DNA of 16,633 bases from a virus (taxonomy: Duplodnaviria; Heunggongvirae; Uroviricota; Caudoviricetes), in IMG/VR virus record IMGVR_UViG_2740892219_000014; one strand, given 5' to 3'. The position numbers and the translations under genes are program-made. The notes under the pieces are model-generated. The model did no database searches. It was not told the DNA's origin and was given only the letters and a program-made list of their open reading frames with translations. Below are positions 568 to 16,633 of this stretch, in pieces (positions within the stretch are counted from its first letter, which is position 1; each line of letters opens with the position of its first letter).

Positions 568-587
568 TACTGTATACATACACAGTG
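568..587. promoter_or_regulatory. Putative LexA (SOS) box TACTGTATACATACACAGTG
   Basis: CTGT-N8-ACAG palindrome with 17/20 matches to the E. coli consensus TACTGTATATATATACAGTA, both half-sites intact. Lies in the AT-rich divergent intergenic region; a TTGAAA -35-like hexamer sits on the minus strand at 613-618, oriented toward the Mor-like gene, with the -10 ambiguous. Confidence 0.6.
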
Positions 588-903
588 CTATTTATCATTT
601 TTATCGCCTACTTTTCAAAAAGCTCGTTTCCCTCACAGTCGAGGATTTTTTTAAACAAACTTTAAAAATCAAATAAGTAACGACCATGATTGCAATATGT
701 CATCCCCTTCATTACACATAACGCAGGATTTATCTAACTAGCAGCCATTTTATCCTTAGTTCTCTATTTTGAGTTGGGAGATTAATTGGCGAACATGTTA
801 ATTCGAAGAGAACACATTTTTTAAAGTTATTTATTAAAGCTTTTTTCATTCTTCAGCAAAGAGATAAGCAGACACTGGTATCTCACTTATCAGGAGATAT
901 CGT

Positions 904-1191
904 ATGAAAAAAATCACTTTTCCCCGTCTTTCCGGTTGGCTGGCTGCAGCCATTGCTCTGATTGCATTAATCGGCTGGACATCTTCAGCACAAATTCCGG
1001 TCGTCATTTATAAACTAAGCCTGGTTTCACTTTCTGCAGTGCTGGGATACTGGCTCGATCGTAGTTTGTTCCCCTGGGCACGGCCTGACTTTTTTTGCCC
1101 CAGAAAGGAACCGCGTTGCTACGCAGCGGCAATGATTCGTCGCGCCATCATCGTGGCTGCAGTCTGCCTTTCCGTCGCGTTAGGGCTATAG
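904..1191 (+). CDS. Small hydrophobic membrane protein, putative holin
   Basis: 95-aa ORF with AGGAG RBS (892-896) 7 nt before the ATG; 2-3 hydrophobic segments and a charged C-terminal region; its stop TAG (1189-1191) abuts the start of the downstream endolysin gene. Function inferred from position and topology only. Confidence 0.45.
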   Translation: MKKITFPRLSGWLAAAIALIALIGWTSSAQIPVVIYKLSLVSLSAVLGYWLDRSLFPWARPDFFCPRKEPRCYAAAMIRRAIIVAAVCLSVALGL

Positions 1192-1193
1192 TG

Positions 1194-1799
1194 ATGTGGC
1201 TAAAATATATCGCGCTTATGATTATTTTCGTTCTTTTCCCGCTTAACGCGTCTGAACCACCACAAGCCTCTCTGGCATGGAGAAATGAATTGATTCGTAC
1301 CGCCCGAGAAGTCTGGGGACTGAACGCTCCGGTGGCTGACTTTGCCGGGCAATTACACCAGGAGTCCGCCTGGCAGCCAATGGTACGCTCCCCCGTTGGC
1401 GCACAAGGTATGGCGCAATTTATGCCTGCCACAGCGACATGGATAAGCCAACTGTATCCACAGCTACATGAAAACAAACCGTATAACCCAACCTGGGCAA
1501 TCCGGGCGTTGGTACAGTACGACCAGCATTTATGGAACAACATCTCTGCAAAAAATGATTGTCAACGTATGGCGTTTACTCTAAGCGCCTATAACGGTGG
1601 TCAGGGTTGGATTAACCGGGATAAAAAACTGGCGACAACAAAAGGGTTAAATGCCGCCATCTGGTTTGGTCATGTTGAGCAAGTCAACGCCGGGCGCAGC
1701 GCCGCAAACTGGCGAGAAAATCGTCACTATCCGAAGATGATTCTCTATCAACACGCCGCCCGCTACTTACTCTGGGGACAGGCAAGCTGTCTTCACTAA
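1194..1799 (+). CDS. Endolysin, lytic transglycosylase (SLT domain) with N-terminal signal or signal-anchor
   Basis: 201 aa from ATG 1194. N-terminal hydrophobic stretch MWLKYIALMIIFVLFPLNA; the three SLT motifs are present in order: catalytic E-S (QLHQESAWQP), GxxQ (GAQGMAQFMP), AYNxG (LSAYNGGQG). Confidence 0.8.
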   Translation: MWLKYIALMIIFVLFPLNASEPPQASLAWRNELIRTAREVWGLNAPVADFAGQLHQESAWQPMVRSPVGAQGMAQFMPATATWISQLYPQLHENKPYNPTWAIRALVQYDQHLWNNISAKNDCQRMAFTLSAYNGGQGWINRDKKLATTKGLNAAIWFGHVEQVNAGRSAANWRENRHYPKMILYQHAARYLLWGQASCLH

Positions 1800-1811
1800 T
1801 CAGAGGGGCCG

Positions 1812-2126
1812 ATGAAACTCAGTATCGATTTTTGGGAAGTGATCTCCTTTATGCTTTCATTCGTTGGATTAATGTTTGCTGCCGGAAAATTGCTGTTAGC
1901 GCAAATTGAAAAAAGACTTAATGAGCGTTTTGAGTCCCTGGAAAATGCCCGCAGGGAATCAGAAACAAGCTGGTCGAAACTGGAAAGAGAATTTCTCGAA
2001 TTTCGTGCCGAACTTCCACTGTATTATGTCCGCAGAGAGGATTATCTTCGTGGACAAGCAGTATTAGAAGCAAAGCTGGATGCCTTATATAGCAAAATAG
2101 AGTTATTACAACGTGGCAGTTATTAA
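1812..2126 (+). CDS. Membrane-anchored coiled-coil protein of the lysis cassette (possible spanin-like or Mu gp25-like)
   Basis: 104 aa with GAGGGG RBS; N-terminal TM helix (ISFMLSFVGLMFAAGKLLL) followed by a charged heptad-like segment; sits directly after the endolysin and before a terminator. Functional class is inference. Confidence 0.4.
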   Translation: MKLSIDFWEVISFMLSFVGLMFAAGKLLLAQIEKRLNERFESLENARRESETSWSKLEREFLEFRAELPLYYVRREDYLRGQAVLEAKLDALYSKIELLQRGSY

Positions 2127-2130
2127 ATAC

Positions 2131-2164
2131 ATCCCCACCTTTACGTAAGTGTGGGGATTTTTTA
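2131..2164 (+). terminator. Rho-independent terminator after the lysis cassette
   Basis: ATCCCCAC (2131-2138) pairs with GTGGGGAT (2151-2158) around a palindromic TTACGTAA loop, followed by a run of six T; located 5 nt after the stop of the 1812-2126 gene. Confidence 0.7.
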
Positions 2165-2271
2165 TAACCATTCAATTTTTTCTCTAAATCACATTAAAAG
2201 ATTCTTCACTCTCACTGCTTCAGAATACATTTCAACGATAACGAAGTGAGCGGTAATAAGGTACACCTCAT

Positions 2272-2727
2272 ATGAAAGTTTTATCTGTAATGAATTATGT
2301 CGTGGTCAGATTACGTGATCGGCATCCTGAAATGGACATATTCATTTCATCTACGGATGCCCAAAAATATATTCCACAGACACAACAGATTACGGTGATT
2401 ATTAATTATAGCGGTTCTGTCTTCACCACGCCCGAAAGTAGTGATGCCATTGTACAACAGCAAATACTCCGCTTAACCGCCACCGTTATTGTTGGCAAAA
2501 ATTGTGATGCGTTAAACGCACTTGATCACATACGCAGCGCATTGGGAGGCCTTCAGCCTCCTGATTGCGATCATCTTATTTGGCTTGAAAAAGAAATTAA
2601 TACGGGTGAGAGCGACGGTTTCTGCCGCTACATCCTGGAAATGGCGACCAGCTCGCTGTTTATCGCTGAACAGGACAGCACGGATCTTCCCCTGCTTACT
2701 GAAGTTAATTACGAGGAAACTGAATGA
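2272..2727 (+). CDS. Phage virion protein, Mu gp37-like (putative tail completion or terminator protein)
   Basis: 151-aa ORF at the position Mu gene K (gp37) occupies immediately upstream of the sheath gene; its stop overlaps the next ATG (ATGA). Start codon uncertain (ATG 2272 or 2290). Family assignment from synteny and size, not a strong motif. Confidence 0.45.
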   Translation: MKVLSVMNYVVVRLRDRHPEMDIFISSTDAQKYIPQTQQITVIINYSGSVFTTPESSDAIVQQQILRLTATVIVGKNCDALNALDHIRSALGGLQPPDCDHLIWLEKEINTGESDGFCRYILEMATSSLFIAEQDSTDLPLLTEVNYEETE

Positions 2728-2921
2728 AATATATCTACAACGGTCCGGCAAGCGGCGTCACCCTTGCCGACGGTCAAGAAATCTTATTATGGCCGAACAG
2801 TGAAATTGATCTGCCAGAAGACAATGAGTGGGTTATGACCATGATTGCCCGAAATCACTTGATTCTCATCATCCCCCAGGAAGAACAAAATAACGTAGAG
2901 GAAATTGTACATGGCAGCTAA
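2724..2921 (+). CDS. Small phage protein, Mu gp38-like, translationally coupled between gp37-like and sheath
   Basis: 65 aa with GAGGA RBS (2714-2718); start overlaps the upstream stop and its end overlaps the sheath start by 11 nt; acidic; syntenic with Mu gp38. Confidence 0.4.
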   Translation: MKYIYNGPASGVTLADGQEILLWPNSEIDLPEDNEWVMTMIARNHLILIIPQEEQNNVEEIVHGS

Positions 2922-4332
2922 TTATCTGCACGGTGTAGAAACCATTGAAATTGAAACCGGCCCGCGTCCGGTAAAAGCAGTAAAATCAGCTGTAATCGCT
3001 TTAATCGGTACCGCTCCCTGTGGCCCGGTAAACCAACCGACGCTGTGCCTTTCTGAAAGTGACGCGGCACAGTTTGGATCGATTCAGGCTAACTTTACGA
3101 TCCCGCAGGCGCTGAAGGCGATTTATGATCACGGTGCCGGTACAGTGGTGGTAATTAATGTGCTGGATCCAGTAAAACATGGACTACACATTACCAATGA
3201 AACCATTACGTTCAATAGTGACGATAAAGCTAAATTAGCTCATCCGGGGGTAAGTTCGGTAACGCTAAGAGCAAGTATCAGTTCCACTACATACAAAAAT
3301 ACATCATACAGCGTTAATGCCGCTGACGGCGTTATTACCCGTACAGGAACTGAAATTGCGGCAGGAGCAAAGGTTTACGCGACTTATACCTATGTTGACC
3401 CTACAAAGGTCACCGCAGCCGATATTATCGGGGCCGTTAATACCGCAGGCGATCGCACGGGGATGAGGCTCCTTCAGGACACTTATAACTTGTATGGTTT
3501 CTACGCCAAAATTCTGCTGGCACCCGTTTTTTGTACGCAAAAATCAGTGACTACCGAGCTGATTGCACAAGCGGAAAAACTCGGTGCGATTACCTACATT
3601 GATGCCCCAATTGGGACTACATTCCAGCAGGTATTGGCTGGACGCGGTTCGCAAGGCGCAATCAACTTCAATACCAGCTCTGATCGTGCACGTTTATGCT
3701 ACCCACACGTCAAAGTTTACGATGGCATCACTAACCAGGAAATTCTTGAACCTCTCTCTTCGCGCGCTGCCGGGCTACGTGCCAAAGTAGACCTCGAAAA
3801 AGGTTTCTGGTGGAGCAACTCAAACCAGGAAATTCAGGGTATTACCGGTATCGAACGTTCGCTTTCCGCAATGATTGATGATCCACAAAGCGAAGTGAAT
3901 CAGCTCAACGAAAACGGTATTACCACTATTTTCAATAGTTATGGTTCTGGTCTGCGCCTGTGGGGCAACCGCACAGCGGCATGGCCAACCGTGACTCATA
4001 TGCGTAACTTTGAAAACGTTCGCCGGACAGGCGATGTAATTAATGAGTCAATCCGTTATTTCAGTCAACAGTATATTGATATGCCGATCAATCAGGCACT
4101 GATTGACGCGCTGACCGAATCGGTAAATACCTGGGGCCGAAAACTGATTGCCGACGGCGCACTGCTTGGCTTTGAGTGCTGGTACGATCCGGCGCGAAAT
4201 TCACCGGCTGAACTCAGTGCCGGGCATTTATTGCTCAGCTATAAATTTACCCCACCGCCGCCGCTGGAACGTCTGACGTTTGAAACTGAAATTACCTCTG
4301 AATATTTAGTCTCTCTGGAGAGCAATCGCTAA
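2911..4332 (+). CDS. Contractile tail sheath protein (Mu gpL / P2 FI family)
   Basis: 473 aa from ATG 2911 (GAGGA RBS 2898-2902; the track's TTG at 2905 is less likely). N-terminus MAANYLHGVETIEIETGPRPV is typical of sheath proteins; size and position directly upstream of the tube gene fit. Confidence 0.9.
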   Translation: MAANYLHGVETIEIETGPRPVKAVKSAVIALIGTAPCGPVNQPTLCLSESDAAQFGSIQANFTIPQALKAIYDHGAGTVVVINVLDPVKHGLHITNETITFNSDDKAKLAHPGVSSVTLRASISSTTYKNTSYSVNAADGVITRTGTEIAAGAKVYATYTYVDPTKVTAADIIGAVNTAGDRTGMRLLQDTYNLYGFYAKILLAPVFCTQKSVTTELIAQAEKLGAITYIDAPIGTTFQQVLAGRGSQGAINFNTSSDRARLCYPHVKVYDGITNQEILEPLSSRAAGLRAKVDLEKGFWWSNSNQEIQGITGIERSLSAMIDDPQSEVNQLNENGITTIFNSYGSGLRLWGNRTAAWPTVTHMRNFENVRRTGDVINESIRYFSQQYIDMPINQALIDALTESVNTWGRKLIADGALLGFECWYDPARNSPAELSAGHLLLSYKFTPPPPLERLTFETEITSEYLVSLESNR

Positions 4333-4856
4333 TGGCTGGAAAAATTCAAATTAACCGTATTACCAACGCCAATATTTATCTCGATGGTAATAATCTTTTA
4401 GGCCGTGCAACAGAAATTAAATTGCCAGATGTCAGTTTAATTATGCAGGAACATAAAGCACTGGGCATGGTGGGTAAAATAGAACTCCCGGCTGGTTTCG
4501 ATAAACTGGAGGGGGAAATTAAATGGAACTCCTTTTACCAGGACGTAATGCGTAAAACGGCAAACCCGTGGCAGGCTGTAGCATTACAGTGTCGCTCCAG
4601 TATTGATTGTTATAACTCTCAGGGGAAAGCGAATCAATTAGCGTTAGTCACACATTTAACCGTGATGTTTAAAAAAAATCCACTGGGCACATTTAAACAG
4701 AATGAAAACCCGGAATTCAGCAGCGCCTTTGGCTGCACTTATATTAAACAAGTAGTCGATGGTGAAACGCTGCTTGAACTGGATTATATGGCGAATATTT
4801 TCCGCGTTAACGGCGTGGATCAATTAAGTACCTATCGCAATAACATCGGTGGCTAA
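4332..4856 (+). CDS. Tail tube protein (Mu gpM / P2 FII family)
   Basis: 174 aa; start overlaps the sheath stop (TAATG). N-terminus ...NANIYLDGNNLLGRATEIKLP and C-terminus ...NIFRVNGVDQLSTYRNNIGG closely resemble the P2 FII tube pattern (NLFxDGxN ... VNGVDxLxxxRxNIG). Confidence 0.9.
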   Translation: MAGKIQINRITNANIYLDGNNLLGRATEIKLPDVSLIMQEHKALGMVGKIELPAGFDKLEGEIKWNSFYQDVMRKTANPWQAVALQCRSSIDCYNSQGKANQLALVTHLTVMFKKNPLGTFKQNENPEFSSAFGCTYIKQVVDGETLLELDYMANIFRVNGVDQLSTYRNNIGG

Positions 4857-4862
4857 GTTATT

Positions 4863-4878
4863 CGGGGCTACGGCCCCG
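4863..4878 (+). other. GC-rich hairpin (CGGGGC-TACG-GCCCCG) right after the tube gene
   Basis: Perfect 6-bp GC stem with tetraloop 7 nt after the tube stop; no T-run follows, so more likely an RNA stability or attenuation element than a full terminator. Confidence 0.35.
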
Positions 4879-4906
4879 AACTCCGCAAAATAAATAAGGA
4901 TACAAA

Positions 4907-5224
4907 ATGAAAGAGCATTATATCTTACAGTTTCCCTTTACGTCGGCAGCAGGAAATAATATCGACACGCTACAATTACGTCGCCTGAAAGTCAAAGATA
5001 TGCGTAATGCACGCCGGGTCAGCGAAAAGCCGGAAGAATGGGATGAACCGCTAATGGCAGCGATGACCGGGCTGGTACCAGAAGATTTAGCTGAAATGGA
5101 TTTGCTGGATTACCAGGCGTTGCAGAAACGATTTCAATCCATGCTTACCGTGGCTACAGAATCCCCCCTTGCTATGGCAGGCAATGGCGCTACTGGCGAG
5201 ATGGTTTCGCTTTCCACCCAGTGA
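4907..5224 (+). CDS. Tail assembly chaperone (P2 gpE / Mu gp41 position), short in-frame product
   Basis: 105 aa, acidic, with AAGGA RBS; located between the tube and tape-measure genes, as for tape-measure chaperones. Confidence 0.7.
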   Translation: MKEHYILQFPFTSAAGNNIDTLQLRRLKVKDMRNARRVSEKPEEWDEPLMAAMTGLVPEDLAEMDLLDYQALQKRFQSMLTVATESPLAMAGNGATGEMVSLSTQ

Positions 5225-5312
5225 GATTGACGCTCTAACGATAGATGACTTTAGTCACTGGCTGGATGAAGCCAGCGCTCAAATAAAAATCGAATATGAC
5301 TCGCAGACCTGA
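5163..5312 (+). other. Putative programmed frameshift site (C6 run) and +1-frame extension giving a longer chaperone isoform
   Basis: The +1 frame (equivalent to -2) is open from 5055 to a TGA at 5310-5312, overlapping the chaperone 3' end; UCC_CCC_CUU at 5162-5170 would let tRNA-Pro re-pair 2 nt back; the extension reads ...PPSEIDALTIDDFSHWLDEASAQIKIEYDSQT. The -1 frame closes almost immediately. Confidence 0.45.
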
Positions 5313-5412
5313 TGTCTGCGAGTTCTTCAAAGCCCGCCAGGTTTATTTCTTCCCAGCCCATTTTTCAGAAAACTAACCAGCGGGCCATCACCAATCTATA
5401 AGAGAAACAATT

Positions 5413-7788
5413 TTGGCCAACGATATTATTACCCAGCTTCAGGCGCGTAATGAGACGTTGACGCAGGCAATAGCCCGTTACGGCTCACTCAACGCCAGAA
5501 CATTGTTAGCACTCTCTTCTCAGCAAGCGACAGTAATCAAACTAACGCAGCAACTTGCCGATTCCGCTCTCCGCCTGGAGGAAAATAGCCGAAACCGCGC
5601 TGATCTGATGGAGAAAACCCAAACATTTGCTGGGCAATTTAGCAAAGTATTCAATGTTGAAGTCCCTGACTGGAAGTTGCCGTATGAGTTTCAGGACAAC
5701 ATGGTCAATTTGGCGACCAAAGGTGGGATGAATGATACAACCCGCGAGACACTCAGCCTTAATCTGCGCGACTGGAGCATGGATTTTAACCAGCAGCAGA
5801 CCACCTTACAGAACGCAGCCCAGGTGCTAATCGAAGGTAATTTGTCGTCGATGCAGGATCTCAACCGTTATATGCCGGAGCTCGCCAAAGCGGCCACCAC
5901 CACGCGCGAAAGTGCTGAAACATGGGCGAATGCCGCGCTCGCGACTCATGATCGACTGAATATTGCGCCAGAAAATTTCCACGCCGCGCAAAACATGATG
6001 TACGGCATTAGCAAAAACGGTGGGCCTACCGTTGCCGGGCAAACACAGTGGATAGACAAATTTGCAGTTAAAACTGGCGCACAGGGTTTAGAAGGTATGG
6101 CTGAACTGACCGCCACAATGCAGATCGCAATGAAAAATGGTGCCAGCGCCAGTGTGGCGGCGGAGAATTTCGACCACTTTCTGCAAACCATCTTTTCGAA
6201 AAAAACCGATAACTGGTTCGTCAGCCAGGGCGTCGATCTGCAAGGCTCTTTGCTTGAACATCAGCAAAACGGCATGGGTGTTAGCGAAGCCATGATTCAT
6301 ATCGTGCAAACGCAACTTGAGAAGATGAATCCGGCGATCCTCGACACCTTCAAACGCACCATGCAAATTGAAGATTTATCTGCTCGCAGCAACGCACTGC
6401 AATCGATGGTGACGCAATTTAATCTGGGCGAAATGTTCGGCGATGCGCAAACAGTGGAATTCCTGGCACCTGTGCTGGCGAATATGGAAGAGTATCGCCA
6501 GTTAAAAGCATCCGCCATGCAAGACAGCGGTAAGAATATGATTGACAACGATTTTTCTGTGCAGATGGCCTCGCCCATTGAACAAACTAAAACGTTACAA
6601 CTGGCGTTAAATGATTTATGGCTCAGCATTGGCTTGCAATTAATGCCGCTGATTGGCGAGTTGGCGCAAAGCCTTACTCCGGTGATTCGCCAGTTCAGCG
6701 CCTGGCTACGTGAACACCCGGCGCTGGTGCAAAACATTGCGAAAATCGTCGGAGCGATTTGGCTGTTTAACGGCGCACTGAATGTTTTAAAGCTGGGCGC
6801 GAACGTCATCGCCTCGCCGTTTATTCGTCTGGTCGATATCTTCCTGAAAGTCAGGGCAAGTCTGACGCTCACAGGCGCGGCAAGTAAGATGCTATCAGCG
6901 GTTAATTCATTATATAACGGCGCAAAATGGCTAACGCAACTGCTTGGCCGTGGCCTGATTGGCGCATTGAAACTGGCAGGTCAGACCGTCTTCTGGTTGG
7001 GTAGAGTTTTATTGATGAATCCTATTGGTCTGGTCATCACCGCGATTGCGGGCGCTGCTTATCTGATCTATCGCCACTGGGAACCTATCTCCAGATTCTT
7101 TTCCGCCATCTGGCAACGTATCACCACGGCCTTTGACGGCGGCATTGCAGGGATTTGCCGGTTAATTCTCGACTGGTCGCCGCTGGAGTTGTTCTACAAC
7201 GCCTTTTCCAGTGTGATGAATTGGTTTGGTGTCGAGATGCCTGCAAGTTTTAGCGAGTTCGGCAGCAATCTTCTGGGCAGTCTGGTTGACGGCATAATGA
7301 ATGCTTTCCCCGCTCTGAAAGGCATTATTGATCAGGTCAAAAACGCCTTACCGGACTGGCTAAAAACCACGATGGGTATTAGCACAGAAGGATCGGCTAC
7401 GGCTGTTACAAGCACGACGAATACCGCATCAATCTCCCCCACGACCGTTGTTCCAGGCGTTGCCGGAGCGATTTTAACGCCTCCTGTGGGCAAACAACTC
7501 GCGCCATCCAGTAAAACGACAACGTCGCCATCGACACCAGCGGAAAAAAATACAGCCGCCAAACCCGCATCGGCTTCTTTACCTGGTAAATCTGTAACCA
7601 AACCGGCGACGCTCCCCTCCCGTTCCTCTGGAAAAGTTCAGGTGAATTTTTCGCCACAAATTACCGTGCAGAGTAACGGACAAAACACCACTAAAGACAT
7701 TCAGAACGTGTTGACGATAAGTAAACGCGAACTGGAAAGAATGATTAACGACGTAATGGCGCAACAACAGCGCCGGGGGTATGCCTGA
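5413..7788 (+). CDS. Tail tape measure protein
   Basis: 791 aa; helical Q/A/L-rich N-terminal half, hydrophobic glycine-rich segments in the middle, and a Ser/Thr/Pro-rich low-complexity C-terminal region; sits after the chaperone gene. Apparent TTG start at 5413 (no in-frame ATG or GTG after the upstream stop at 5374-5376). Confidence 0.85.
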   Translation: MANDIITQLQARNETLTQAIARYGSLNARTLLALSSQQATVIKLTQQLADSALRLEENSRNRADLMEKTQTFAGQFSKVFNVEVPDWKLPYEFQDNMVNLATKGGMNDTTRETLSLNLRDWSMDFNQQQTTLQNAAQVLIEGNLSSMQDLNRYMPELAKAATTTRESAETWANAALATHDRLNIAPENFHAAQNMMYGISKNGGPTVAGQTQWIDKFAVKTGAQGLEGMAELTATMQIAMKNGASASVAAENFDHFLQTIFSKKTDNWFVSQGVDLQGSLLEHQQNGMGVSEAMIHIVQTQLEKMNPAILDTFKRTMQIEDLSARSNALQSMVTQFNLGEMFGDAQTVEFLAPVLANMEEYRQLKASAMQDSGKNMIDNDFSVQMASPIEQTKTLQLALNDLWLSIGLQLMPLIGELAQSLTPVIRQFSAWLREHPALVQNIAKIVGAIWLFNGALNVLKLGANVIASPFIRLVDIFLKVRASLTLTGAASKMLSAVNSLYNGAKWLTQLLGRGLIGALKLAGQTVFWLGRVLLMNPIGLVITAIAGAAYLIYRHWEPISRFFSAIWQRITTAFDGGIAGICRLILDWSPLELFYNAFSSVMNWFGVEMPASFSEFGSNLLGSLVDGIMNAFPALKGIIDQVKNALPDWLKTTMGISTEGSATAVTSTTNTASISPTTVVPGVAGAILTPPVGKQLAPSSKTTTSPSTPAEKNTAAKPASASLPGKSVTKPATLPSRSSGKVQVNFSPQITVQSNGQNTTKDIQNVLTISKRELERMINDVMAQQQRRGYA

Positions 7789-8741
7789 TGTATGCCGTTT
7801 TAGGAGAGATTGAATTTAAGGTTGTCACATTCTGGGACGGCTTTAAAAGCACAATGGGCGTGGACTACGCCACACATGCCCGTATAGAAGGCAAACCCGG
7901 CGTGCAGTTTATTGGCGATAAGCTGGATATGCTGGCACTGGAATTTTCCTTGCACAGCCAGTTTTGCCAACCCACAACAGAGCTGAATCGACTGCGTGAA
8001 GCCATGCTTGCCCACAAAGCGATGGCTCTGGTGTTTGGCAATGGCGATTATCGCGGCTGGTTTGTGATTACGGAGCTAACCGCCACCCACCAGCACACCG
8101 ATCCCTGGGGCAATGTGATTGCTCAAAGCGGAACAATGTCGCTCCAGGAGTACACCGGCGATCCTAAAAATCCACTCTTGCCCCCGGCAATTACTACCCA
8201 AGACCCGAATATTGACGAAAAGGCGAGCGATTTTCCAGACATGGTGGAGTCCTGGTTTGATCAGATATTGAACGCCATTGAAGAAGGTATGCGTAAGGCC
8301 AAAGAGATGCTCGATGAGCTGACTCAAGCCATTGAAGATATTAAAAAAACGGTGGCAAAAGTGAAAGCACTGGTTAAAGAGGCCAAAGCGTTAAAAGAAA
8401 AGTGTGAAAAGATAATTACGTCGTTGAAAAAGACTATCGACGCCATCGAAACCCTGTTTAAACAGCCCATGGATCTGCAAACGCTGGCAGGACTCCCAAA
8501 AGCGTTGTCGGCGCAGATTAACGCTTTACTGGGTAACATGCCAGGTATCCGGGACTGCGCCAAAGACGCCAGCACGCTGGTTGACCATGCTCAGGCGCTT
8601 TTCGACGACATTACCAACGACATCGCCGAAGCGACGTTCGATAAAGCCGCAACGTTGGTTGAGCAGGCACGAACAACGGTACAACAAACCACTCCCGCAG
8701 TGAGCCAGCTTGCTGCCGCGACCATTACGAGGAGCTGGTGA
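7788..8741 (+). CDS. Tail protein with gpU-like N-terminal domain (about 130 aa) fused to a long predicted coiled-coil C-terminal region
   Basis: 317 aa; start overlaps the tape-measure stop (TGATG). The N-terminal segment fits the slot and general pattern of P2 gpU / Mu gp43 N-domain; residues about 150-317 are K/E/A/L-rich heptad-like sequence (EEGMRKAKEMLDELTQAIEDIKKTVAKVKALVKEAKALKEK...). Confidence 0.5.
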   Translation: MYAVLGEIEFKVVTFWDGFKSTMGVDYATHARIEGKPGVQFIGDKLDMLALEFSLHSQFCQPTTELNRLREAMLAHKAMALVFGNGDYRGWFVITELTATHQHTDPWGNVIAQSGTMSLQEYTGDPKNPLLPPAITTQDPNIDEKASDFPDMVESWFDQILNAIEEGMRKAKEMLDELTQAIEDIKKTVAKVKALVKEAKALKEKCEKIITSLKKTIDAIETLFKQPMDLQTLAGLPKALSAQINALLGNMPGIRDCAKDASTLVDHAQALFDDITNDIAEATFDKAATLVEQARTTVQQTTPAVSQLAAATITRSW

Positions 8742-8950
8742 TGCGATACCTTGAACATATCACCACCGACGGCGAACGCTGGGATAATCTGGCATGGCAT
8801 TACTACGGCGATGCGCTGGCTTATGAACGCATCATCGCCGCCAATCCACATGTCGCCATTTACCCGGTACTGCCTTCCGGTATTCAGCTCATTATTCCGG
8901 TCATTTCCGTCAACAAAACCTTATCGGAGATACCACCATGGCTGAGATAA
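8741..8950 (+). CDS. Tail protein X-like (LysM-like fold, P2 gpX family)
   Basis: 69 aa from ATG 8741 (GAGGA RBS 8730-8734; overlaps the upstream stop). The sequence GERWDNLAWHYYGDALAYERIIAANPHVAIYPVLPSGIQLIIP fits the gpX pattern (GDxxDxLxxxYYG...ANPxL...LPxGxxLxIP). Confidence 0.7.
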   Translation: MRYLEHITTDGERWDNLAWHYYGDALAYERIIAANPHVAIYPVLPSGIQLIIPVISVNKTLSEIPPWLR

Positions 8951-9978
8951 GCGTATCTGGTGGCGTCTTTGCCACACTCGCGCCCATTTTTACCCTTTGG
9001 TATGGGCATAAAGATATCACTTATGACATCACGCCCTATGTCACCAGCATCAGTTACCACGACAGCATCAAAAACGAGTCAGATACCATCGCCATTACAC
9101 TGGATGACACCGATGGACGTTGGATAAAAGAGTGGTATCCCGGCAAAGGCGATACGCTGGCGCTGCATATGGGTTATCAGGGGGAGACGCTCCTCGATTG
9201 CGGTCAGTATATTATTGATAAAATTGATATTTCATCACCACCTTCCACGGTAAATATTGATGGCATTGCCACTTCCGTCAATCAGGCGCTGCGTACCCGT
9301 AACAGTCAGGGCTTTGAAGAAACGACGCTTTCGGCCATCGCCAGTCGTATCGCGCAAACTCACGGTCTGAAGCTGGTGGGCAAAATCGAGCCGCTGGCGA
9401 TTGACCGGGTGACACAGTACGGCGAAACCGATGTTGGATTTCTCAAGCGTCTGGCCAGCGAATATGGCTATACCGTGAAAGTGACGACAAAAGAGCTGAT
9501 TTTTTCACATCTGCCGACACTACGCTGCCTGGCGCCAGTGAAAACCATCGACCGCAAAGAGGTTTCGCACTTTACCTTCAAAGACACCATTAATCGCATC
9601 TACAAGAACGCCACCGTACAGCATCAAAATAGTAAGAAAAAAGAACTGGTTATCTACACTCACGACAGCCAGCAAAAACCGTCAGCCCGTGGAGTCGGCA
9701 CCAGTGCCGACACGTTGAAACTCAACAGCCGGGCGACGGATGTTGGCGCGGCACAGGCAAAGGCCAACGCTGCACTCGACAGCCACAACGAATATCAGCA
9801 AACCGGAACACTCAGGATGATGGGCTGCCCGGAACTGACAGCAGGCAATAAAATCGAACTCATTGATTTTGGTATTCTTTCTGGACAATGGCTGATTGAT
9901 AAATCTACTCACAGTTTTGTGCGCAGCGGCTATACCACTGAAATCGACGTTTCGCGCGGGCCAGCAACCAGCCAGTAA
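8938..9978 (+). CDS. Baseplate hub / late control gene D-like protein (P2 gpD, Mu gp44 family)
   Basis: 346 aa with GGAG RBS; start overlaps the gpX-like 3' end; size and position (after U/X, before the spike) fit the gpD family. Confidence 0.8.
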   Translation: MAEISVSGGVFATLAPIFTLWYGHKDITYDITPYVTSISYHDSIKNESDTIAITLDDTDGRWIKEWYPGKGDTLALHMGYQGETLLDCGQYIIDKIDISSPPSTVNIDGIATSVNQALRTRNSQGFEETTLSAIASRIAQTHGLKLVGKIEPLAIDRVTQYGETDVGFLKRLASEYGYTVKVTTKELIFSHLPTLRCLAPVKTIDRKEVSHFTFKDTINRIYKNATVQHQNSKKKELVIYTHDSQQKPSARGVGTSADTLKLNSRATDVGAAQAKANAALDSHNEYQQTGTLRMMGCPELTAGNKIELIDFGILSGQWLIDKSTHSFVRSGYTTEIDVSRGPATSQ

Positions 9979-9987
9979 GGAGGCACT

Positions 9988-10647
9988 ATGAAGGGAGTAA
10001 CCCGGCAAACGGGGATTATCAGCGATATTGACGAAACCAGCGTTCGGGTGCGAGTCACACTGCCAGAGTGCGACAATCTGAAGAGTAACTGGCTTGCGGT
10101 ACTTCAACGTAATTCCCAGGACAATAAAGACTACTGGCTACCGGATATGGGTGAGCAGGTGGAAGTTCTGCTGGACGACAACGGCGAAGATGGCGTGGTA
10201 CTTGGGGCCGTTTATTCTACGGTTGACACCGCGCCTGTGGCCTCGCGAGATAAACGTTACGTCCAGTTTTCTGATGGCGCAGCGTTTGAATATGACCGCA
10301 GCACACACCAGCTTACGATTAACGGCGGTATTGAGAAAATCGTGATTGAGGTTATTGACCGTACTAACCTGACATCACCCAACGTTGAGGTTAAAGCCCA
10401 ACAGGTCACCGTGACTTCCGATACCGTCGATATTAAAGCGACGGCAGTGACGGTAGATGCGCCCATGAGCACCTTTACTGGTAACGTCACGGTAATGAAA
10501 AAACTCACCTGGCTGGGTGGCATGGCAGGAAGTGGAGGCATCGGTAACGCCGCCACGATAACTGGCAATGTCAATGTGATTGGTAACGTTCAGGCCAGCG
10601 GCACATTGCAGGATAGCGGTGGTAACTCAAATCACCATTCACACTAG
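9988..10647 (+). CDS. Baseplate central spike (P2 gpV / Mu gp45 family)
   Basis: 219 aa with a perfect AAGGAGG RBS; N-terminal OB-fold-like region, a middle region of repeated short beta-strand motifs (VTVTSDTVDIKATAVTVDA...), a glycine-rich section and a C-terminal NHHSH tip, as in gpV-type spikes with a metal-binding apex. Confidence 0.85.
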   Translation: MKGVTRQTGIISDIDETSVRVRVTLPECDNLKSNWLAVLQRNSQDNKDYWLPDMGEQVEVLLDDNGEDGVVLGAVYSTVDTAPVASRDKRYVQFSDGAAFEYDRSTHQLTINGGIEKIVIEVIDRTNLTSPNVEVKAQQVTVTSDTVDIKATAVTVDAPMSTFTGNVTVMKKLTWLGGMAGSGGIGNAATITGNVNVIGNVQASGTLQDSGGNSNHHSH

Positions 10648-10653
10648 CTTTTA

Positions 10654-10682
10654 ACCCGCCTGATGGCGGGTTTTCTCTTTTT
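10654..10682 (+). terminator. Rho-independent terminator-like hairpin after the spike gene
   Basis: ACCCGCC-TGAT-GGCGGGT stem-loop followed by TTTTCTCTTTTT, starting 7 nt after the gpV-like stop; leaves a roughly 60-nt spacer before the gpW-like gene. Confidence 0.55.
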
Positions 10683-10745
10683 AATCAATCAGTTTTCTAA
10701 ATCGCTTTAATATCCCCACTGTCCGTTCAGGGCGAAAATAAGCAC

Positions 10746-11105
10746 ATGAACACAAAAACACGCCCCTCAACGCTGCACTGGCAACCCGCCTTGCAGCGGC
10801 CTGAAGAATACGTCTGCGGACTGGATGATATTCACCAGGCAATACACATCATTCTGCGCACGCCGCGCGGCAGTGATCCCCACAGACCGCTGTTTGGCAG
10901 CAACTTGTGGCACTACATCGATTACCCCATCGAGCGGGCAATCCCGCATGTGGTACGGGAGTCGGTGGAAGCCATCCGCCAGTGGGAACCGCGATGTCGG
11001 TTGCTGAAGGTAGCACCGATAATCGACGGTGAACATCTGACGTTACGTGTGCAATGGCGCGCCGCTGACGGCGTAATCAACTCAACGGAGGTGTTATGGC
11101 GATAG
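10746..11105 (+). CDS. Baseplate protein W (GPW/gp25 family)
   Basis: 119 aa; IHIILRTPRGSDPHRPLFGSNLWHYID ... WEPR matches the GPW/gp25 signature (ILxTxxGE/S...P.FGS.L...D...WEPR). Confidence 0.75.
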   Translation: MNTKTRPSTLHWQPALQRPEEYVCGLDDIHQAIHIILRTPRGSDPHRPLFGSNLWHYIDYPIERAIPHVVRESVEAIRQWEPRCRLLKVAPIIDGEHLTLRVQWRAADGVINSTEVLWR

Positions 11106-12211
11106 CCGAACCCGATTTTATTGACCGCGATCCTGCGCAAATTACCAGCGAGATGATTGCGCAATACGAAGATGCCAGCGGTAAAAAACTCTATCCGGCA
11201 CAGGCCGAACGGTTACTCATCGACCTGTTTGCCTATCGTGAAAACCTTGTGCGCATCGCCATTCAGGAAGCGGCGAAACAAAACCTGGTCGCGTATTCCC
11301 GCGCACCAATGTTGGATTATTTAGGGGAGCTGGTGGGTGTTCACCGTTTACCTGCGCAACCGGCAAAAACGACGTTGCAGTTTTCGGTCGTCAGTGCGTA
11401 TACCAGCAATATCCTGATTCCCCAGGGGACGCGGGCCAGTGCCTCTGACAGCGTGATGTTCGCCACCGATGAAGATGTTCTGCTTCCGGCCAGGAGTTTG
11501 CATATCGCCGTTCCGGCCACCAGCCTCGCAGTAGGTGAACAGGGCAATGGCTGGCAGCCTGCACAGATTAGCGCCCTTGTTGACAGGATCGGTTATTACG
11601 ATATCAACGTGACTAATCTGACTCCCACAACCGGCGGTTGTGGTGAAGAGAACGATGATGCACTACGCCAGCGTATACAACTGGCGCCAGAAAGCTTCAG
11701 TAATGCCGGCAGCTATGGCGCATATCGCTTTCATACACTTTCGGTTAGCCAGTCAATTATTGACGTTACAGTACTGGGGCCAGATGAAGGGTTGCCAGAA
11801 GGCTGCGTCGAGCTCTACCCGCTAACCCTGAATGGTCTGCCAGGAACCGAGCTACTCGCGCAAATTGAACAAGAAGTGAGTAAAGAGAAAAAACGTCCGC
11901 TGACTGACAAAGTAAGTGCGAAATGTGCTCTTAGGGTGCCGTATGAAATTCGTGCGCAGCTAACGCTGTTTACCACCGCCGATCAGGAGACAACACTGGC
12001 TGCGGCGCGTAAAGCGATTAGCCTCTGGACGCAACAGCGGCAGAAACATCTGGGGCAGGACATTGTGCCAAACCAGATAATCAAAGTGTTACAAGTCGAT
12101 GGCGTCTATGACGTTGTGCTGAACATGCCTACAAAACGTATTTTGCAGGCGCATGAATGGGCGGAATGCACTGTAATAGACGTCACGATTGCCGGAGTCA
12201 GCGATGGATAA
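11096..12211 (+). CDS. Baseplate wedge protein J (P2 gpJ / Mu gp47 family)
   Basis: 371 aa; start overlaps the gpW-like stop; DDALRQRIQLAPESFSNAGSYGAYRFHTLS resembles the conserved gpJ core; sits in the gpW-gpJ-gpI order. Confidence 0.85.
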   Translation: MAIAEPDFIDRDPAQITSEMIAQYEDASGKKLYPAQAERLLIDLFAYRENLVRIAIQEAAKQNLVAYSRAPMLDYLGELVGVHRLPAQPAKTTLQFSVVSAYTSNILIPQGTRASASDSVMFATDEDVLLPARSLHIAVPATSLAVGEQGNGWQPAQISALVDRIGYYDINVTNLTPTTGGCGEENDDALRQRIQLAPESFSNAGSYGAYRFHTLSVSQSIIDVTVLGPDEGLPEGCVELYPLTLNGLPGTELLAQIEQEVSKEKKRPLTDKVSAKCALRVPYEIRAQLTLFTTADQETTLAAARKAISLWTQQRQKHLGQDIVPNQIIKVLQVDGVYDVVLNMPTKRILQAHEWAECTVIDVTIAGVSDG

Positions 12212-12920
12212 ATTGCTGCCACCGCCGCCGCTTGCCAGCGATGAGCGTTTTTCAACTCTGGCAAATATCGCCGCCGAACGTTTTGCGCAACTCGATCTGA
12301 CGGCATTAATGATATACCTGGTCGACCTGGTTGATGCTTCGGCATTACCTGCCCTTGCAGAACAATTTCACGTTCAGGGGCTGGAAGGTTGGTTATTTAC
12401 TACTGATGAACAAGAGAAGCGTGAGTTAATTAAGCAAGCCATTGAGTTACATAAATATAAAGGAACAGTTTGGGCGGTACGGCGAGTACTGGAAATACTC
12501 TCATTGCCTGGAACTATTGCCGAATGGTTTGAATATGGCGGGAAAGCTTATTTTTTTAAGGTTGATATTACACTAGAGGAAAAAGGGTTAAATGAAGATG
12601 AATTTAATGCACTTATCACATTAATTCATGAATATAAAAATGTTCGTTCAAAACTGGAAAGTATTGTTATTTGGCTTATTAATCAAAGCTCAATACCAGT
12701 TATTGGCAGTGCCATGCAAGGAGGGGAAATCATTACAGTATTGCCTCCTGTTGCAGAAAGTATCAGCCAATCATCAAGAATATTTTTAGCGACAGGTTAT
12801 TGTGTAGAGGAATATATCCAACTACTACCTTATCAACCTGATCGCCTTACACAATCCCAACCGATGAAAATCGGTACAGGATACTGGAGCACCGAAATTA
12901 TGTCTGTATACCCGGAGTAA
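12204..12920 (+). CDS. Baseplate/tail protein I-like (P2 gpI / Mu gp48 position) with an AT-rich C-terminal extension
   Basis: 239 aa from ATG 12204 (GGAG RBS; ATGGATAA overlap with the gpJ-like stop; the track's TTG at 12189 is less likely). N-terminus [16 protein letters not shown] fits the gpI type; the 3' half (about 12480-12920) is markedly AT-rich compared with neighbours. Confidence 0.65.
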
Positions 12921-12922
12921 TA

Positions 12923-14671
12923 ATGGCAAGTGAATTTTTTACAATATTAACTGCTGCAGGCAAAACCCAAATTGCCTCAGCACTGGCGGAGCAAAAACAG
13001 ATCCGTCTGCAAACTATGGTAGTTGGCGATGGCAACGGTAAATATATCGAACCGACAGAAATCCAGACCAAAGTAGTCCATGAGGTCTGGCGTGGTCAGC
13101 TCAATACATTAAAAATTGCGCCAGATAATCCGGCCTGGGTTATCGCAGAAGCGATTATTCCCGAAGAGGTTGGAGGCTGGTATGTTCGCGAAGTTGGGTT
13201 GCTGGATACCGACGGCACGCTGGTCGCTATTGGTAAATTCCCTGAAACCTATAAACCACAATTACCTGCAGGTGCCAGTAAGCAAATTGTTATACGCGCA
13301 GTGATGGAAGTGACAAATGCGGATGTGGTGACGCTGTTGATAGATCCTTCAGTTGTTATGGCAACCAGGGAATATGTCGATGACACGCTGAAAGCACATC
13401 AGCAATCACGAAATCATCCTGATGCAACACTGACGCAGAAAGGTTTCACGCAACTGAGTAATGCAACTAATAGCGATGATGAAACCAAAGCGGCCACACC
13501 AAAAGCAGTAAAAACCGCATATGACCTGGCAAATAGCAAAGCCGCCACCAGCCATACTCATGGCTGGAATCAGATAACCAGTATCCCTGACGGTACGCTG
13601 GCGCAGAAAGGGATTGTGAAGCTTAACAGTACCACAAACAGCACCAGCACAACGGAAGCTGCAACACCGAGCGCGGTGAAGGCGGCAATGGATAAGGCTA
13701 CTGCGGCTGCACCAGCAAGCCATACCCACACCTGGGGACAAATCACTGGTATCCCCGACGCCACGCTGACGCAAAAAGGAATTGTGAAGCTTAACAGTAC
13801 CACAAACAGCACCAGCACGACGGAAGCTGCAACACCGAGCGCGGTGAAGGCGGCAATGGATAAGGCTATTGCGGCAGCACCAGCAAGTCATACCCACGCC
13901 TGGGGACAAATCACTGGTATCCCCGACGCCACGCTGACGCAAAAAGGAATTGTGAAACTTAACAGTACCACAAACAGCACCAGCACGACGGAAGCTGCAA
14001 CACCGAACGCGGTGAAGGCAGCAATGGATAAGGCTATTGCGGCGGAAAACTGTCCCGTAGGTATGCCTATTCCCTGGCCGTCTGATTCTGTACCTTCAGG
14101 CTATGCGCTGATGACAGGACAAACATTCAATAAAACCTCCTATCCCAAACTGGCGATTGCATATCCATCTGGTGTCATTCCTGATATGCGTGGATGGATA
14201 ATTAAAGGGAAACCGGCCAGTGGGCGCACAGTATTATCAACTGAACTGGATGGAGTTAAATCACATAACCATACGGGCAGTATTTCTAGTACGGATTTAG
14301 GGACAAAAACCACAGCCCTCACAGACTTGGGGACTAAAACTACATCAGCATTTAACCATGGTAATAAAACAACAAGTTCATCTGGCACAGTCTCGGCAAC
14401 TGCAACTGTAAGAACAGGGACATCTTCGCCAGAGGGCCAAGCCGACTGGACATCATATGGCCCTGGAACCGGATCATCTTTGACTATTAATGTTCCATCA
14501 CACGCCCATAGTATTACAATTGGTTCCCATTCCCACACTGTTGCACTCGGCACCCATTCGCATTCAATTGCCCTTGGTTCCCATAACCACTCCCTAACCA
14601 TTAATAATACAGGCCCCCCCGAAAACACCGTTAAAAATATCGCATTCAACTATATTGTGAGGCTAGCATGA
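12923..14671 (+). CDS. Tail fiber protein (P2 gpH / Mu S type) with collagen-like repeats and a His-x-His tip
   Basis: 582 aa. Conserved N-terminal baseplate-attachment region (HEVWRGQLN...[38 protein letters not shown]...[48 protein letters not shown]); three 56-aa tandem repeats ([36 protein letters not shown]...); a C-terminal array of H-x-H motifs; and a terminal ...[15 protein letters not shown]. Confidence 0.9.
13553..14045 (+). repeat. In-frame 168-nt tandem repeat, about 2.9 copies, inside the tail fiber gene
   Basis: Copies begin at 13553, 13721 and 13889 (period exactly 168 nt); copies 2 and 3 are nearly identical at the nucleotide level and copy 1 is more diverged; a degenerate partial copy lies upstream at about 13425-13552. 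Confidence 0.85.
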
Positions 14672-15375
14672 ATACTTTTACCTTTTCCGATGAAGCTCAA
14701 ATACTGACTGTTTATAATTTTTCACAAGACTCCCGAGAATATATTGGTGAGTCTGATGCATACATTGCGCCTAATACAGGCTTACCAAATTTTTGCACAT
14801 TAATTTCACCTCCCAAAAAGGTTCCTGGTTTTACTCCTGTTTGGGAGAGTGAAACATGGGGACTTATTGAAGATCATCGAGGCCAAACAGTTTATAACAA
14901 AGTTGATGGCAGCCAGACTATTATTAATAAATTGGGTCAATTGCCTGAAACTGTCACAATTATTTCCCCTACCAGTACTTTTGAGCGTTGGGATGGCGAA
15001 AAATGGCAGCCATCACTTGATGATGCTAAACAGGCGATATATGCCGAAATCAAAAACCTGCGCGATTCTGCCATCGCCGATTACATCATCATCAACGCTC
15101 ATCACTTCCACAGTGATACAAATAGCCGAATACAACAACTCTCACTCACAAAAATGGGAGCCGAAAAACAAATTCCGCCAGGTTTAATGTGGAAAACTAA
15201 AAATAACGGTCTGATTGAGTTAACCAACGAAATCGCCGCCCAGTTTGAATCGGTAACAATAGATCACGATATGCGCCTGTTTGCCAACGCCCAGCGCCAT
15301 ATTGCGGCGGTGGAAACTCTGGGCGATATTCAGGCAGTGCTCGACTACGACTACTCCACAGGCTGGCAACCATGA
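14668..15375 (+). CDS. Tail fiber assembly protein (Tfa, chaperone for the fiber tip)
   Basis: 235 aa; start overlaps the fiber stop (ATGA). N-terminal region ...[34 protein letters not shown]...[20 protein letters not shown]...[13 protein letters not shown]...WDGEKW resembles lambda/P2-type Tfa N-domains; the C-terminal half is divergent. Confidence 0.8.
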
Positions 15376-15827
15376 GTAAAACCACTGTCTGGCTCGCTTG
15401 CTATAAAGGCCGAACAGAGCACCGGGGTATTGCGCAACTAGCTGACTGGCTTACCCGTAAAATCACACGCGGCAGTTATTCCCACTGCGAGTTAGCAGTG
15501 GTATATGGTGAAAAAAATTACCTTTGTTACTCTGCATCACTGCGCGATCGCGGTGTACGCGGAAAGATAATGCCACTACCGTCAGATAAGTGGGATATGC
15601 TGCCGCTCCAGGCTAGCGTTCAGGATGTGGAAGCTTTTTTCCATAAACATAATGGCAAAAAATACGACTGGCGCGGAGCCTTAGGAATTATCACAGGCAA
15701 TAAAGAACAGCGCGATCGTCTGTTCTGCAGTGAATTTTGCGCCGAGTTTCTACAGTTAAAAGAGAGTTGGCGCTATTCCCCAAACCATTTGTATGCTTTA
15801 GTCAGCAGTTGGCAATATCAGCCGTAA
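15372..15827 (+). CDS. Hypothetical 151-aa protein coupled to tfa; possible permuted papain-like (NlpC/P60 YaeF/LRAT-like) hydrolase or acyltransferase
   Basis: ATG overlaps the tfa stop (ATGA), so it is the last gene of the tail operon. An N-proximal His (SYSHCELAVVYG) and a C-proximal Cys in a CSEF context (RLFCSEFCAEF) tentatively fit a permuted His...Cys papain-like arrangement. It is real as an ORF; the function is weakly supported. Confidence 0.5.
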   Translation: MSKTTVWLACYKGRTEHRGIAQLADWLTRKITRGSYSHCELAVVYGEKNYLCYSASLRDRGVRGKIMPLPSDKWDMLPLQASVQDVEAFFHKHNGKKYDWRGALGIITGNKEQRDRLFCSEFCAEFLQLKESWRYSPNHLYALVSSWQYQP

Positions 15828-15832
15828 AATAA

Positions 15833-15853
15833 CGCCGGGCATCACGCCCGGCG
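15833..15853. terminator. Hairpin shared by the convergent gene ends; likely terminator for the minus-strand gene
   Basis: CGCCGGGC-ATCAC-GCCCGGCG stem-loop between the plus-strand stop (15825-15827) and the minus-strand stop (15842-15844, inside the loop); on the minus strand it is followed by TTATTTTAC, whereas on the plus strand no T-run follows. Confidence 0.55.
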
Positions 15854-16633
15854 CATTACCGTCTGGTACAGTAAACTATCCAGTTCCTTAACGTCCCCTT
15901 CCCTGCTGTCCGGTAACACTGGTGGAATTTTCCCGTGCACCAGTTCCGTACTAATAAACACATGCAACAAAGGACGACGCGGACCATATTCCACTTCACC
16001 CGCACGCTGTTTACATTCCAGCAACTCGTCTATTTCTGCGCGTAACGGCGCATCAAGTTCGCTTCCCGCCAGTAATTCGGCAAACCGCATTGGCAGTACA
16101 CCTTTACCCGCTTCAACCCAACGCACAGCCAGCAGTGGCCGCAGCACGTAAAAGTATTTTTTCAGCCAAACTACGTTGCCCTGCAAATAACCGCGAAAAT
16201 TTTTCCGCGCCATCGGATAATAATGCCAACGCGCGCGCAGCGGAGAAAACCACTTCGGCACCATTGCCTTAAGCGCCGTTATCGTTTCTTCATCTTGTTG
16301 ATAGACCACCGGAGAATCCAGCCATTCAATCAGCGTCGGATTCGCGCCTTTCAGTAATCCCAGCGCCTTGCGCCACTCCCAGCCTGAAACATCTAACTCG
16401 TCGTCAATAGGCAACTCAATAACATCGCGCGGCGCCTCCACCCGCAGATACCATTCCGGCGGATGAACATACAAGAACCGCACATCGTAGTCGCTGTCGG
16501 GTGAGGCAAATCCCCAACCGCGACTCCCCGATTCACTCGCATACAACACTTTCACATCATACCGCCGTTCAATTTCTTTTAACTGCTGCGATACCCGTTC
16601 GTGCATCGCAACACTGACTCCATTTAATGGCAT
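15842..16633 (-). CDS. Nucleotidyltransferase-fold protein (Pol beta superfamily)
   Basis: 263-aa ORF whose ATG is the last codon of the window (16631-16633), so the true N-terminus could lie beyond the edge. The motif LYASESGSRGWGFASPDSDYDVRFLY matches the minimal nucleotidyltransferase signature hG[GS]-x(9-13)-DhD; it is convergent with the tail operon. Confidence 0.6.
   Translation of the reverse strand: MPLNGVSVAMHERVSQQLKEIERRYDVKVLYASESGSRGWGFASPDSDYDVRFLYVHPPEWYLRVEAPRDVIELPIDDELDVSGWEWRKALGLLKGANPTLIEWLDSPVVYQQDEETITALKAMVPKWFSPLRARWHYYPMARKNFRGYLQGNVVWLKKYFYVLRPLLAVRWVEAGKGVLPMRFAELLAGSELDAPLRAEIDELLECKQRAGEVEYGPRRPLLHVFISTELVHGKIPPVLPDSREGDVKELDSLLYQTVMRRA

Follow-up and report, generated by a model that had tools for sequence, protein, structure and literature searches.

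The window, as the whole stretch of 16,633 nucleotides analysed here is called, contains a complete set of contractile tail genes, a lysis cassette and a gene for a Mor-family activator (Table 1). Genes for head formation, packaging, replication and integration are absent from the window (positions 1–16633). A complete contractile tail combined with lysis genes and a Mor regulator, and with no head, corresponds to the layout of an R-type tailocin, so that, judging by its gene content, the cluster would be tailocin-like. The tail operon ends with the genes of a tail fibre, its chaperone and a 151-residue protein, which is the subject of this work and is referred to below as the enzyme. The Caudo_TAP and DUF4376 domains of the ORF that precedes the enzyme gene identify it as a tail-fibre chaperone, and DUF4376 proteins have been described experimentally as the tail-fibre chaperones of Alteromonas phages (PMC10579305).

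Table 1. Genes and other features of the window, with positions counted from its first nucleotide.
Feature	Position	Strand	Remarks
Mor-family activator	1–348	−	
Holin	904–1191	+	Followed by SLT transglycosylase and small membrane protein
Tail genes, first part		+	In order: Gp37, sheath, tube, tail assembly chaperone, tape measure
Tail genes, continued		+	In order: gpU, gpX, gpD, V, W, J, I; then fibre, chaperone, enzyme
Tail fibre	12923–14671	+	Phage_tail_fib N-terminus, Phage_fiber_2 repeats, Collar domain
Tail-fibre chaperone, 235 aa	14668–15375	+	Pfam DUF4376 (E 2.4e-13) and Caudo_TAP (E 2.5e-5); tail-fibre-assembly PHROGs
ATGA overlap of enzyme start and chaperone stop	15372–15375	+	ATG 15372–15374, TGA 15373–15375
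Permuted NlpC/P60 (YaeF/YiiX-like) thiol enzyme, 151 aa, soluble	15372–15827	+	ORF, profiles, hhalign, predicted fold
Proposed catalytic codon, His38 (CAC)	15483–15485	+	Read from DNA
Proposed catalytic codon, Tyr98 (TAC)	15663–15665	+	Read from DNA
Proposed catalytic codon, Cys119 (TGC)	15726–15728	+	Read from DNA
Right junction of cluster and chromosome	15818–15827		
G+C-rich hairpin	15832–15854		Just past the enzyme stop codon; T-run on minus strand
RlaP-family nucleotidyltransferase, host gene	15842–16633 and beyond	−	PF10127, E 3e-92

An earlier note on this DNA described a 151-residue ORF with an ATG that overlaps the stop codon of the chaperone (tfa) gene. This ORF is real, and the two codons share an ATGA tetranucleotide through which the translation of the chaperone and the enzyme is coupled. 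The overlap, together with the lack of any sigma-70-like promoter between positions 14400 and 16100, bears out the further proposal that the protein is made along with the tail proteins. The counterpart of the enzyme gene in E. coli NCTC9699 has 88.7% nucleotide identity to it, and in this pair of sequences the dN/dS ratio is 0.046 for the enzyme versus 0.18 for the chaperone. Homologues of the enzyme number in the thousands. The gene is therefore real and is under strong purifying selection. Among 5,426 complete E. coli genomes, 199 have the gene, always as a single copy, and a protein of identical sequence is found on a record from Escherichia albertii.

No further gene of the element follows the enzyme gene: homology to element-free E. 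coli begins at about position 15823, at its stop codon. The hairpin beyond the stop codon terminates transcription of the convergent host gene and at the same time marks where the tail operon ends. The host gene encodes an RlaP-family nucleotidyltransferase and is followed by a slipin/Band_7 gene (locus L005, 7268–8395), and this conserved, host-encoded pair is found in about 1,630 of the 5,426 E. coli genomes. In NCTC9699, the same cluster lies between lysC and the convergent RlaP gene, with the slipin gene and yjbD/rluF beyond. There (locus L001, 5774–7739), there is a frameshift in the gene for tail protein I, and the fibre gene survives as pseudogene pieces; the chaperone and enzyme genes are intact. 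E. coli HS (locus L183, 2940–3050) carries no tail cluster, and its lysC–RlaP interval contains a gene of the zeta-toxin family, so the tail cluster and the zeta gene are alternative occupants of one site.

An orthologous cluster occupies the same chromosomal site next to lysC in Salmonella LT2, where it is known as the Def4 prophage remnant (STM4198–STM4219). The fibre (STM4200), the chaperone (STM4199) and the orthologue of the enzyme (STM4198, 76% identical) follow each other in the same order as in the window. Unlike the window, the Salmonella cluster has a gtrABC operon inserted among its baseplate genes. In Salmonella Infantis SARB27 (locus L259, 11748–14583), this O-antigen glucosylation operon is located between V and W. 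The gtrABC operon is true cargo within a tail operon.

The earlier note guessed, on the strength of two short motifs, that this might be a circularly permuted papain-like (NlpC/P60) enzyme. Both motifs are present, as S-Y-S-H38-C-E and F-C119-S-E-F, and the guess is upheld by a profile match to the structure 3kw0, by the alignment with YiiX and by invariant His, Tyr and Cys residues. A profile built from 42 aligned sequences (alignment A1) has a single match in the Protein Data Bank, the YaeF/YiiX-family enzyme of Bacillus cereus (3kw0, E 2.3e-4), and the two aligned stretches of this match span exactly the S-H and C-S-E-F motifs. When the alignment of the enzyme is compared by hhalign with an alignment of bona fide YiiX proteins, all of which belong to PF05708, the probability is 84% with an E-value of 7e-6. 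His38, Tyr98 and Cys119 of the enzyme are thereby paired with YiiX His49, Tyr115 and Cys128. Xu et al. 2011 (PMC3142127) defined four catalytic residues, and three of them are matched in this way. Profile and structure-based searches, which the note had proposed as a check, return papain-like proteins and no unrelated non-enzymatic family.

Structure prediction, proposed in the same place, likewise yields a papain-like fold. The AlphaFold2 model calculated from A1 is confident (mean pLDDT 83.2, pTM 0.82) and contains the core common to the group, a five-stranded sheet and two core helices. His38 belongs to the N-terminal β-sheet part of the model (strand 38–45), the C-terminal part is helical, and Cys119 opens helix 119–126. 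The chain thus has the permuted order, with a His in the N-terminal sheet and then a Cys at the start of a C-terminal helix, and the Tyr that precedes the Cys in known members (Tyr115 in YiiX, Tyr127 in BcPPNE) has its equivalent in Tyr98. Superposition on YiiX would place His38 and Cys119 next to each other. In a set of 229 sequences, consisting mainly of representatives of clusters at 50% identity, His38, Trp74, Tyr98 and Cys119 are conserved in every sequence, and Ser37, Glu40, Ser56, Gly61, Val62, Arg63, Ser120, Glu121 and Pro137 in at least 96% of them. The enzyme has a permuted papain-like (NlpC/P60) fold of the YaeF/YiiX type.

The resemblance to YiiX does not extend to the third residue of the catalytic triad. 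Glu64 of YiiX and BcPPNE is not conserved and stands opposite Ser54 in the hhalign alignment or Ala55 in the HMMER alignment; position 55 is Ala in the window enzyme and Ser in 78% of its relatives. Glu40, which is 99% conserved, may stand in for this residue, as far as its conservation can tell. PPPDE1 and LRAT likewise lack a third residue that orients the His (PMC3142127). In BcPPNE, a lysine in the S1' site is bound through its amino group by Asp68 (PMC3142127); this residue stands opposite Asp59 of the enzyme, a pairing compatible with a substrate of the acyl-amino-acid or acyl-lysine type. Two other roles for the cysteines were considered and rejected. A zinc site made up of Cys39, Cys52, Cys119 and Cys123 does not hold, as many relatives have Val, Ser or Ile at the positions of Cys39, Cys52 and Cys123; Cys39 and Cys123, which are Val or Ile in many of these, are probably buried structural residues. 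A lipoprotein with the N-terminal 'WLAC' as its lipobox does not hold either, as this Cys varies among relatives and the model has a core strand here.

The enzyme is 18–20% identical to E. coli YiiX (2if6) and to BcPPNE (3kw0), both of which belong to PF05708 (Peptidase_C92). It differs from YiiX in being about 50 residues shorter (151 versus 202), from both proteins in having Ser or Ala in place of Glu64, and in being encoded in phage tail operons. The gathering threshold of PF05708 is not reached by the window enzyme, and a scan of the 42 relatives with the same model gave one weak match (E 0.073). The missed threshold and the absence of the canonical third residue define a divergent, phage-borne subfamily rather than a plain member of YaeF/YiiX. 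The type VI effectors TseH (6v98) and Tox-Act1 share the permuted NlpC/P60 core, in which a His and a Cys are essential. In LRAT/PLAAT (HRASLS) proteins and the picornavirus 2A H-box/NC proteins, the motif is NCEHF, the third residue is a second His and the C-terminus carries a membrane anchor. With its F-C-S-E-F motif and no anchor, the enzyme falls outside the LRAT/PLAAT group. A distant YiiX-like permuted enzyme, LnsA of Staphylococcus aureus, provides an analogue for acyl transfer onto a protein, being one of the two proteins needed for lipoprotein N-acylation (PMC7387801). Unlike the phage enzyme, LnsA has a partner, LnsB, and acts on exported lipoproteins.

Wall hydrolases are common components of phage tails, and the membership of the enzyme in the NlpC/P60 superfamily could be taken to mean that it is a classical peptidoglycan endopeptidase, active in lysis or carried by the virion to degrade the cell wall. 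This is very unlikely. In the canonical endopeptidase class the Cys precedes the His, the S1 site is polar and accommodates γ-D-Glu, and an export signal is present; the enzyme, with its His before the Cys and a core strand at the N-terminus in place of a signal peptide, does not belong to this class. The paper on the virion proteome of Haemophilus phage SuMu, in which peptide-mass matching is weak, does not mention gp51, the SuMu homologue.

Public annotation gives a different picture. Pfam and NCBIfam scans of the single enzyme sequence return no match. PHROGs places it in phrog_1128, 'enoyl-CoA hydratase/carnithine racemase-like' (E 2e-56), and among 95 relatives found in a database search all but one are named 'hypothetical' or 'enoyl-CoA hydratase', the latter name being borne by Pasteurellaceae records, Ralstonia phage RP12 and SuMu gp51. 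The view that the enzyme is an enoyl-CoA hydratase or carnitine racemase-like protein, as PHROG 1128 and the many Pasteurellaceae records have it, draws on these database names and on nothing else, and it is almost certainly wrong. Neither the window enzyme nor any of its 42 relatives has a Pfam match to the crotonase family, fold searches give papain-like proteins and no crotonase, and the name was copied by similarity from one Haemophilus parasuis record. Since any crotonase signal is absent, the label is a propagated error, which the papain-like assignment corrects. The exception among the 95 relatives is a metagenomic viral protein named 'Permuted papain-like amidase enzyme, YaeF/YiiX, C92 family', and automated labelling has already given the same assignment to a few metagenomic viral proteins. 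A literature search on the 'enoyl-CoA hydratase' phage gene found no paper, and within the literature searched nothing was found on the enzyme family or its link to the fibre chaperone. A paper on E. coli ST131 'tailocins' deals with other, head-bearing prophages, and the enzyme family is absent from the text of a survey of Pseudomonas tailocins.

The family is large. A profile search of 1.84 billion cluster representatives gives 4,512 proteins at E ≤1e-3, of which 1,940 reach E ≤1e-10; the resulting family size of about 4,500 refers to clusters at 50% identity. Nearly all members are single-domain proteins of 130–180 residues. Members of a first clade are found on at least 544 IMG/VR contigs and belong to Enterobacteriaceae, Pasteurellaceae and Moraxella. 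A second clade, on at least 399 contigs, is represented in genomes of Beta-, Gamma- and Alphaproteobacteria, Campylobacterota, Fusobacteriota and Ignavibacteria, as well as on one short contig binned as Tissierella. The hosts are essentially all diderm bacteria. Among 150 matches from an exhaustive search, the enzyme is nowhere joined to a chaperone or fibre domain in the manner of a Rosetta-stone link, and the over-long proteins in this set are over-extended ORFs or read-through into a lipoprotein-like tail. One relative, P0374 (227 residues), has a C-terminal extension with a lipobox-like 'LALAGC', and its sequence suggests a read-through into, or a fusion with, an o-spanin-like lipoprotein gene.

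The most consistent property of the family is the position of its genes. ORFs were called in the best 80 IMG/VR loci of each clade. An ORF on the same strand ends within 12 nucleotides of the start of the enzyme-homologous region in 73 of 78 loci of the first clade and in 69 of 79 loci of the second, so that an abutting or overlapping upstream ORF is present in 142 of the 157 viral loci, mostly with a four-nucleotide overlap of start and stop codons. BLAST links 88 of the 95 upstream proteins of the first clade into a single component, to which the window chaperone belongs, and the 32 representatives of the upstream proteins include 19 with DUF4376 and six with Caudo_TAP. Upstream proteins of the second clade match several tail-fibre-assembly PHROGs and families of unknown function, and the gene that comes before them belongs mostly to tail-fibre families. 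A role of DUF4376 as the specific recruiter of the enzyme was considered and is not general, the domain being recognisable in 4 of 33 upstream representatives of the second clade versus 19 of 32 in the first.

The arrangement is not restricted to one type of phage. Among Mu-like phages, it is found in SuMu and in Haemophilus prophages, where com and a mom-like gene come next. The earlier note had the enzyme standing at the end of the operon instead of mom-type genes, and this is not a general rule, as Pasteurellaceae Mu-like phages have the enzyme gene between the chaperone and com/mom-like genes. In a P2-like cluster, the enzyme lies between the fibre genes and the sheath gene. Moraxella and Pasteurella phages also show the arrangement. 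There are a few exceptions: one distant member adjoins a ribonucleotide reductase gene and has no fibre neighbour, the equally distant member in the Ralstonia jumbo phage RP12 is not beside fibre genes, and a copy in Candidatus Tokpelaia (5001–5444, loci L012/L013; 57% identical) is solitary, being located in non-phage chromosomal surroundings away from fibre genes and flanked by electron-transfer-flavoprotein genes on one side and an FAD monooxygenase gene on the other. The near-obligate order of fibre, chaperone and enzyme, and its persistence through fibre swaps and in a head-less cluster, are new.

The persistence through fibre swaps is seen when Enterobacteriaceae loci with mosaic fibre regions (L019, L023, L025 and L029–L035) are compared with the window as reference. 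In these loci, identity to the window is 11–19% for the C-terminus of the fibre and 2–20% for chaperone residues 1–100, and at the same time 79–92% for the final 100 residues of the chaperone and 56–95% for the enzyme. The low identity of the fibre tip and the N-terminal part of the chaperone means that these two form the receptor-specific cassette, and the high identity of the C-terminal domain of the chaperone and of the enzyme means that both belong to the constant backbone. The chaperone is therefore itself a two-part mosaic, in which about 100 N-terminal residues are swapped together with the fibre tip and the C-terminal DUF4376 domain stays constant. Tfa proteins of the lambda and Mu type have a conserved N-terminus and a variable C-terminus, and the window chaperone displays the reverse pattern.

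These observations bear on the suggestion of the earlier note that the gene is accessory or defence cargo of the kind that accumulates at the end of a tail operon. An ordinary moron, unrelated to the tail and located at a permissive operon end for the benefit of the host or as a toxin or defence gene, would agree with the tendency of such ends to gather cargo, with the insertion of gtrABC in the orthologous Salmonella cluster and with the intact state of the enzyme gene next to the fibre pseudogenes of NCTC9699. The suggestion is nevertheless a poor fit, and cargo in this sense is unlikely. The enzyme occupies the same overlapping position in about 90% of the 157 loci, in Mu-like, P2-like and putative siphovirus genomes, and stays constant when fibres are swapped. 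It has no promoter of its own, a comparison of the downstream genes across loci reveals no conserved partner or immunity gene, and PADLOC matches neither the enzyme and the chaperone nor the flanking host genes, RlaP and slipin. The recurrent, overlapping fibre–chaperone–enzyme order, which survives the replacement of the fibre tip, points to a fixed accessory of host recognition and not to variable cargo. Conserved synteny could also come from co-inheritance of the genes as a cassette, with no functional link between them.

We therefore favour, with moderate confidence and largely by analogy with characterised relatives, a reading in which the protein has acyl hydrolase or transferase activity and works as an accessory to the fibre module. 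Its retention in a cluster that has no head argues for a role in the production, function or release of tails and speaks against the protection or establishment of a phage genome as its task. As the product of the last cistron of the late tail operon, the enzyme would be cytoplasmic, and its coupling to the chaperone would place it in the cytoplasm alongside the fibres and the chaperone during tail assembly. By analogy with the YaeF/YiiX family, His38 would deprotonate Cys119 at the start of its helix, and Cys119 would then attack the carbonyl of an acyl-amide or acyl-ester bond, with Tyr98 holding the carbonyl. The resulting acyl-thioester would be resolved by water, if the protein is a hydrolase, or by an acceptor, if it is an acyltransferase. 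The acyl group, fatty or other, might reside on a lipid, an LPS precursor or an acylated protein. In addition to the catalytic Cys/His/Tyr/polar set, Xu et al. 2011 described a hydrophobic S1 pocket and a fatty acid bound in YiiX, and a fatty-acyl amidase activity of YiiX and BcPPNE was put forward as a proposal (PMC3142127). The permuted proteins Tox-Act1 and TseH have phospholipase activity (PMC12994826). The hydrophobic S1 pockets of permuted members and the activity of the tested ones towards phospholipids make a hydrophobic, fatty-acyl group the likely one.

Given the phospholipase activity of Tox-Act1 and TseH, the enzyme could be a late membrane lipase, which attacks phospholipids of the inner membrane from the cytoplasm in the manner of a phospholipase A and thereby assists lysis and release or remodels lipids; its place after the chaperone would then reflect mere late timing. 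The genes downstream of the enzyme are heterogeneous and include endolysins, a spanin, a methyltransferase, minor tail proteins and others, and several phages have holin or endolysin genes directly after it, among them Pseudomonas and Acidovorax phages, where both follow. Moreover, one relative appears to be fused to, or read through into, a spanin-like tail with a lipobox, and the hosts are nearly all diderm. In the window, however, 13 kb separate the enzyme gene from the lysis cassette at the start of the cluster, and across loci it is the upstream chaperone, rather than any lysis gene, that is conserved as a neighbour. The enzyme also has neither a membrane anchor nor an amphipathic targeting segment, residues 6–11 being a core β-strand in the model. 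We regard a lipase of this kind, the strongest of the alternatives, as doubtful, if still worth keeping in mind.

The reading as a fibre-module accessory has a narrower form, in which the enzyme acts on the tail fibre itself and is brought there by the chaperone, which has a constant C-terminal domain that stays with the enzyme. We put this form forward only tentatively and would not expect it to be the correct one. Three versions fit the evidence. First, the enzyme may add or remove an acyl or isopeptide-linked modification on a lysine of the fibre or chaperone. Bil-type defence systems put ubiquitin-like tags on tail fibres, and this version could cover the removal of such host conjugates. 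Second, it may trim or free the chaperone 'cap'. Third, it may be a deacylase directed at lipid A or LPS and carried by the fibre tip. Any of these would make the enzyme a member of a new class of enzymatic components in the host-recognition modules of phages and tailocins.

A papain-like enzyme in a phage is not surprising as such; a widespread enzyme tied to the host-recognition module is a concrete lead. Phages and prophages of diderm bacteria are the main carriers of the family, which has no Pfam model and bears a misleading inherited name. Its near-obligate place behind the chaperone suggests that an enzyme takes part in the maturation of fibres, the interaction with receptors or the release of particles, a step absent from current models of tail-fibre assembly. 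Orthologues are at hand in tractable systems, namely STM4198 in the Def4 element of LT2, gp51 of Haemophilus phage SuMu and the homologue in Acidovorax phage AP1. The 90%-identity cluster that contains the Salmonella enzyme (151 residues) also includes proteins of 201–204 residues named 'DUF4376 domain-containing', which correspond to the upstream chaperone. This mixed cluster is probably either a clustering artefact or the result of a bridging sequence in which a frameshift has fused the two genes.
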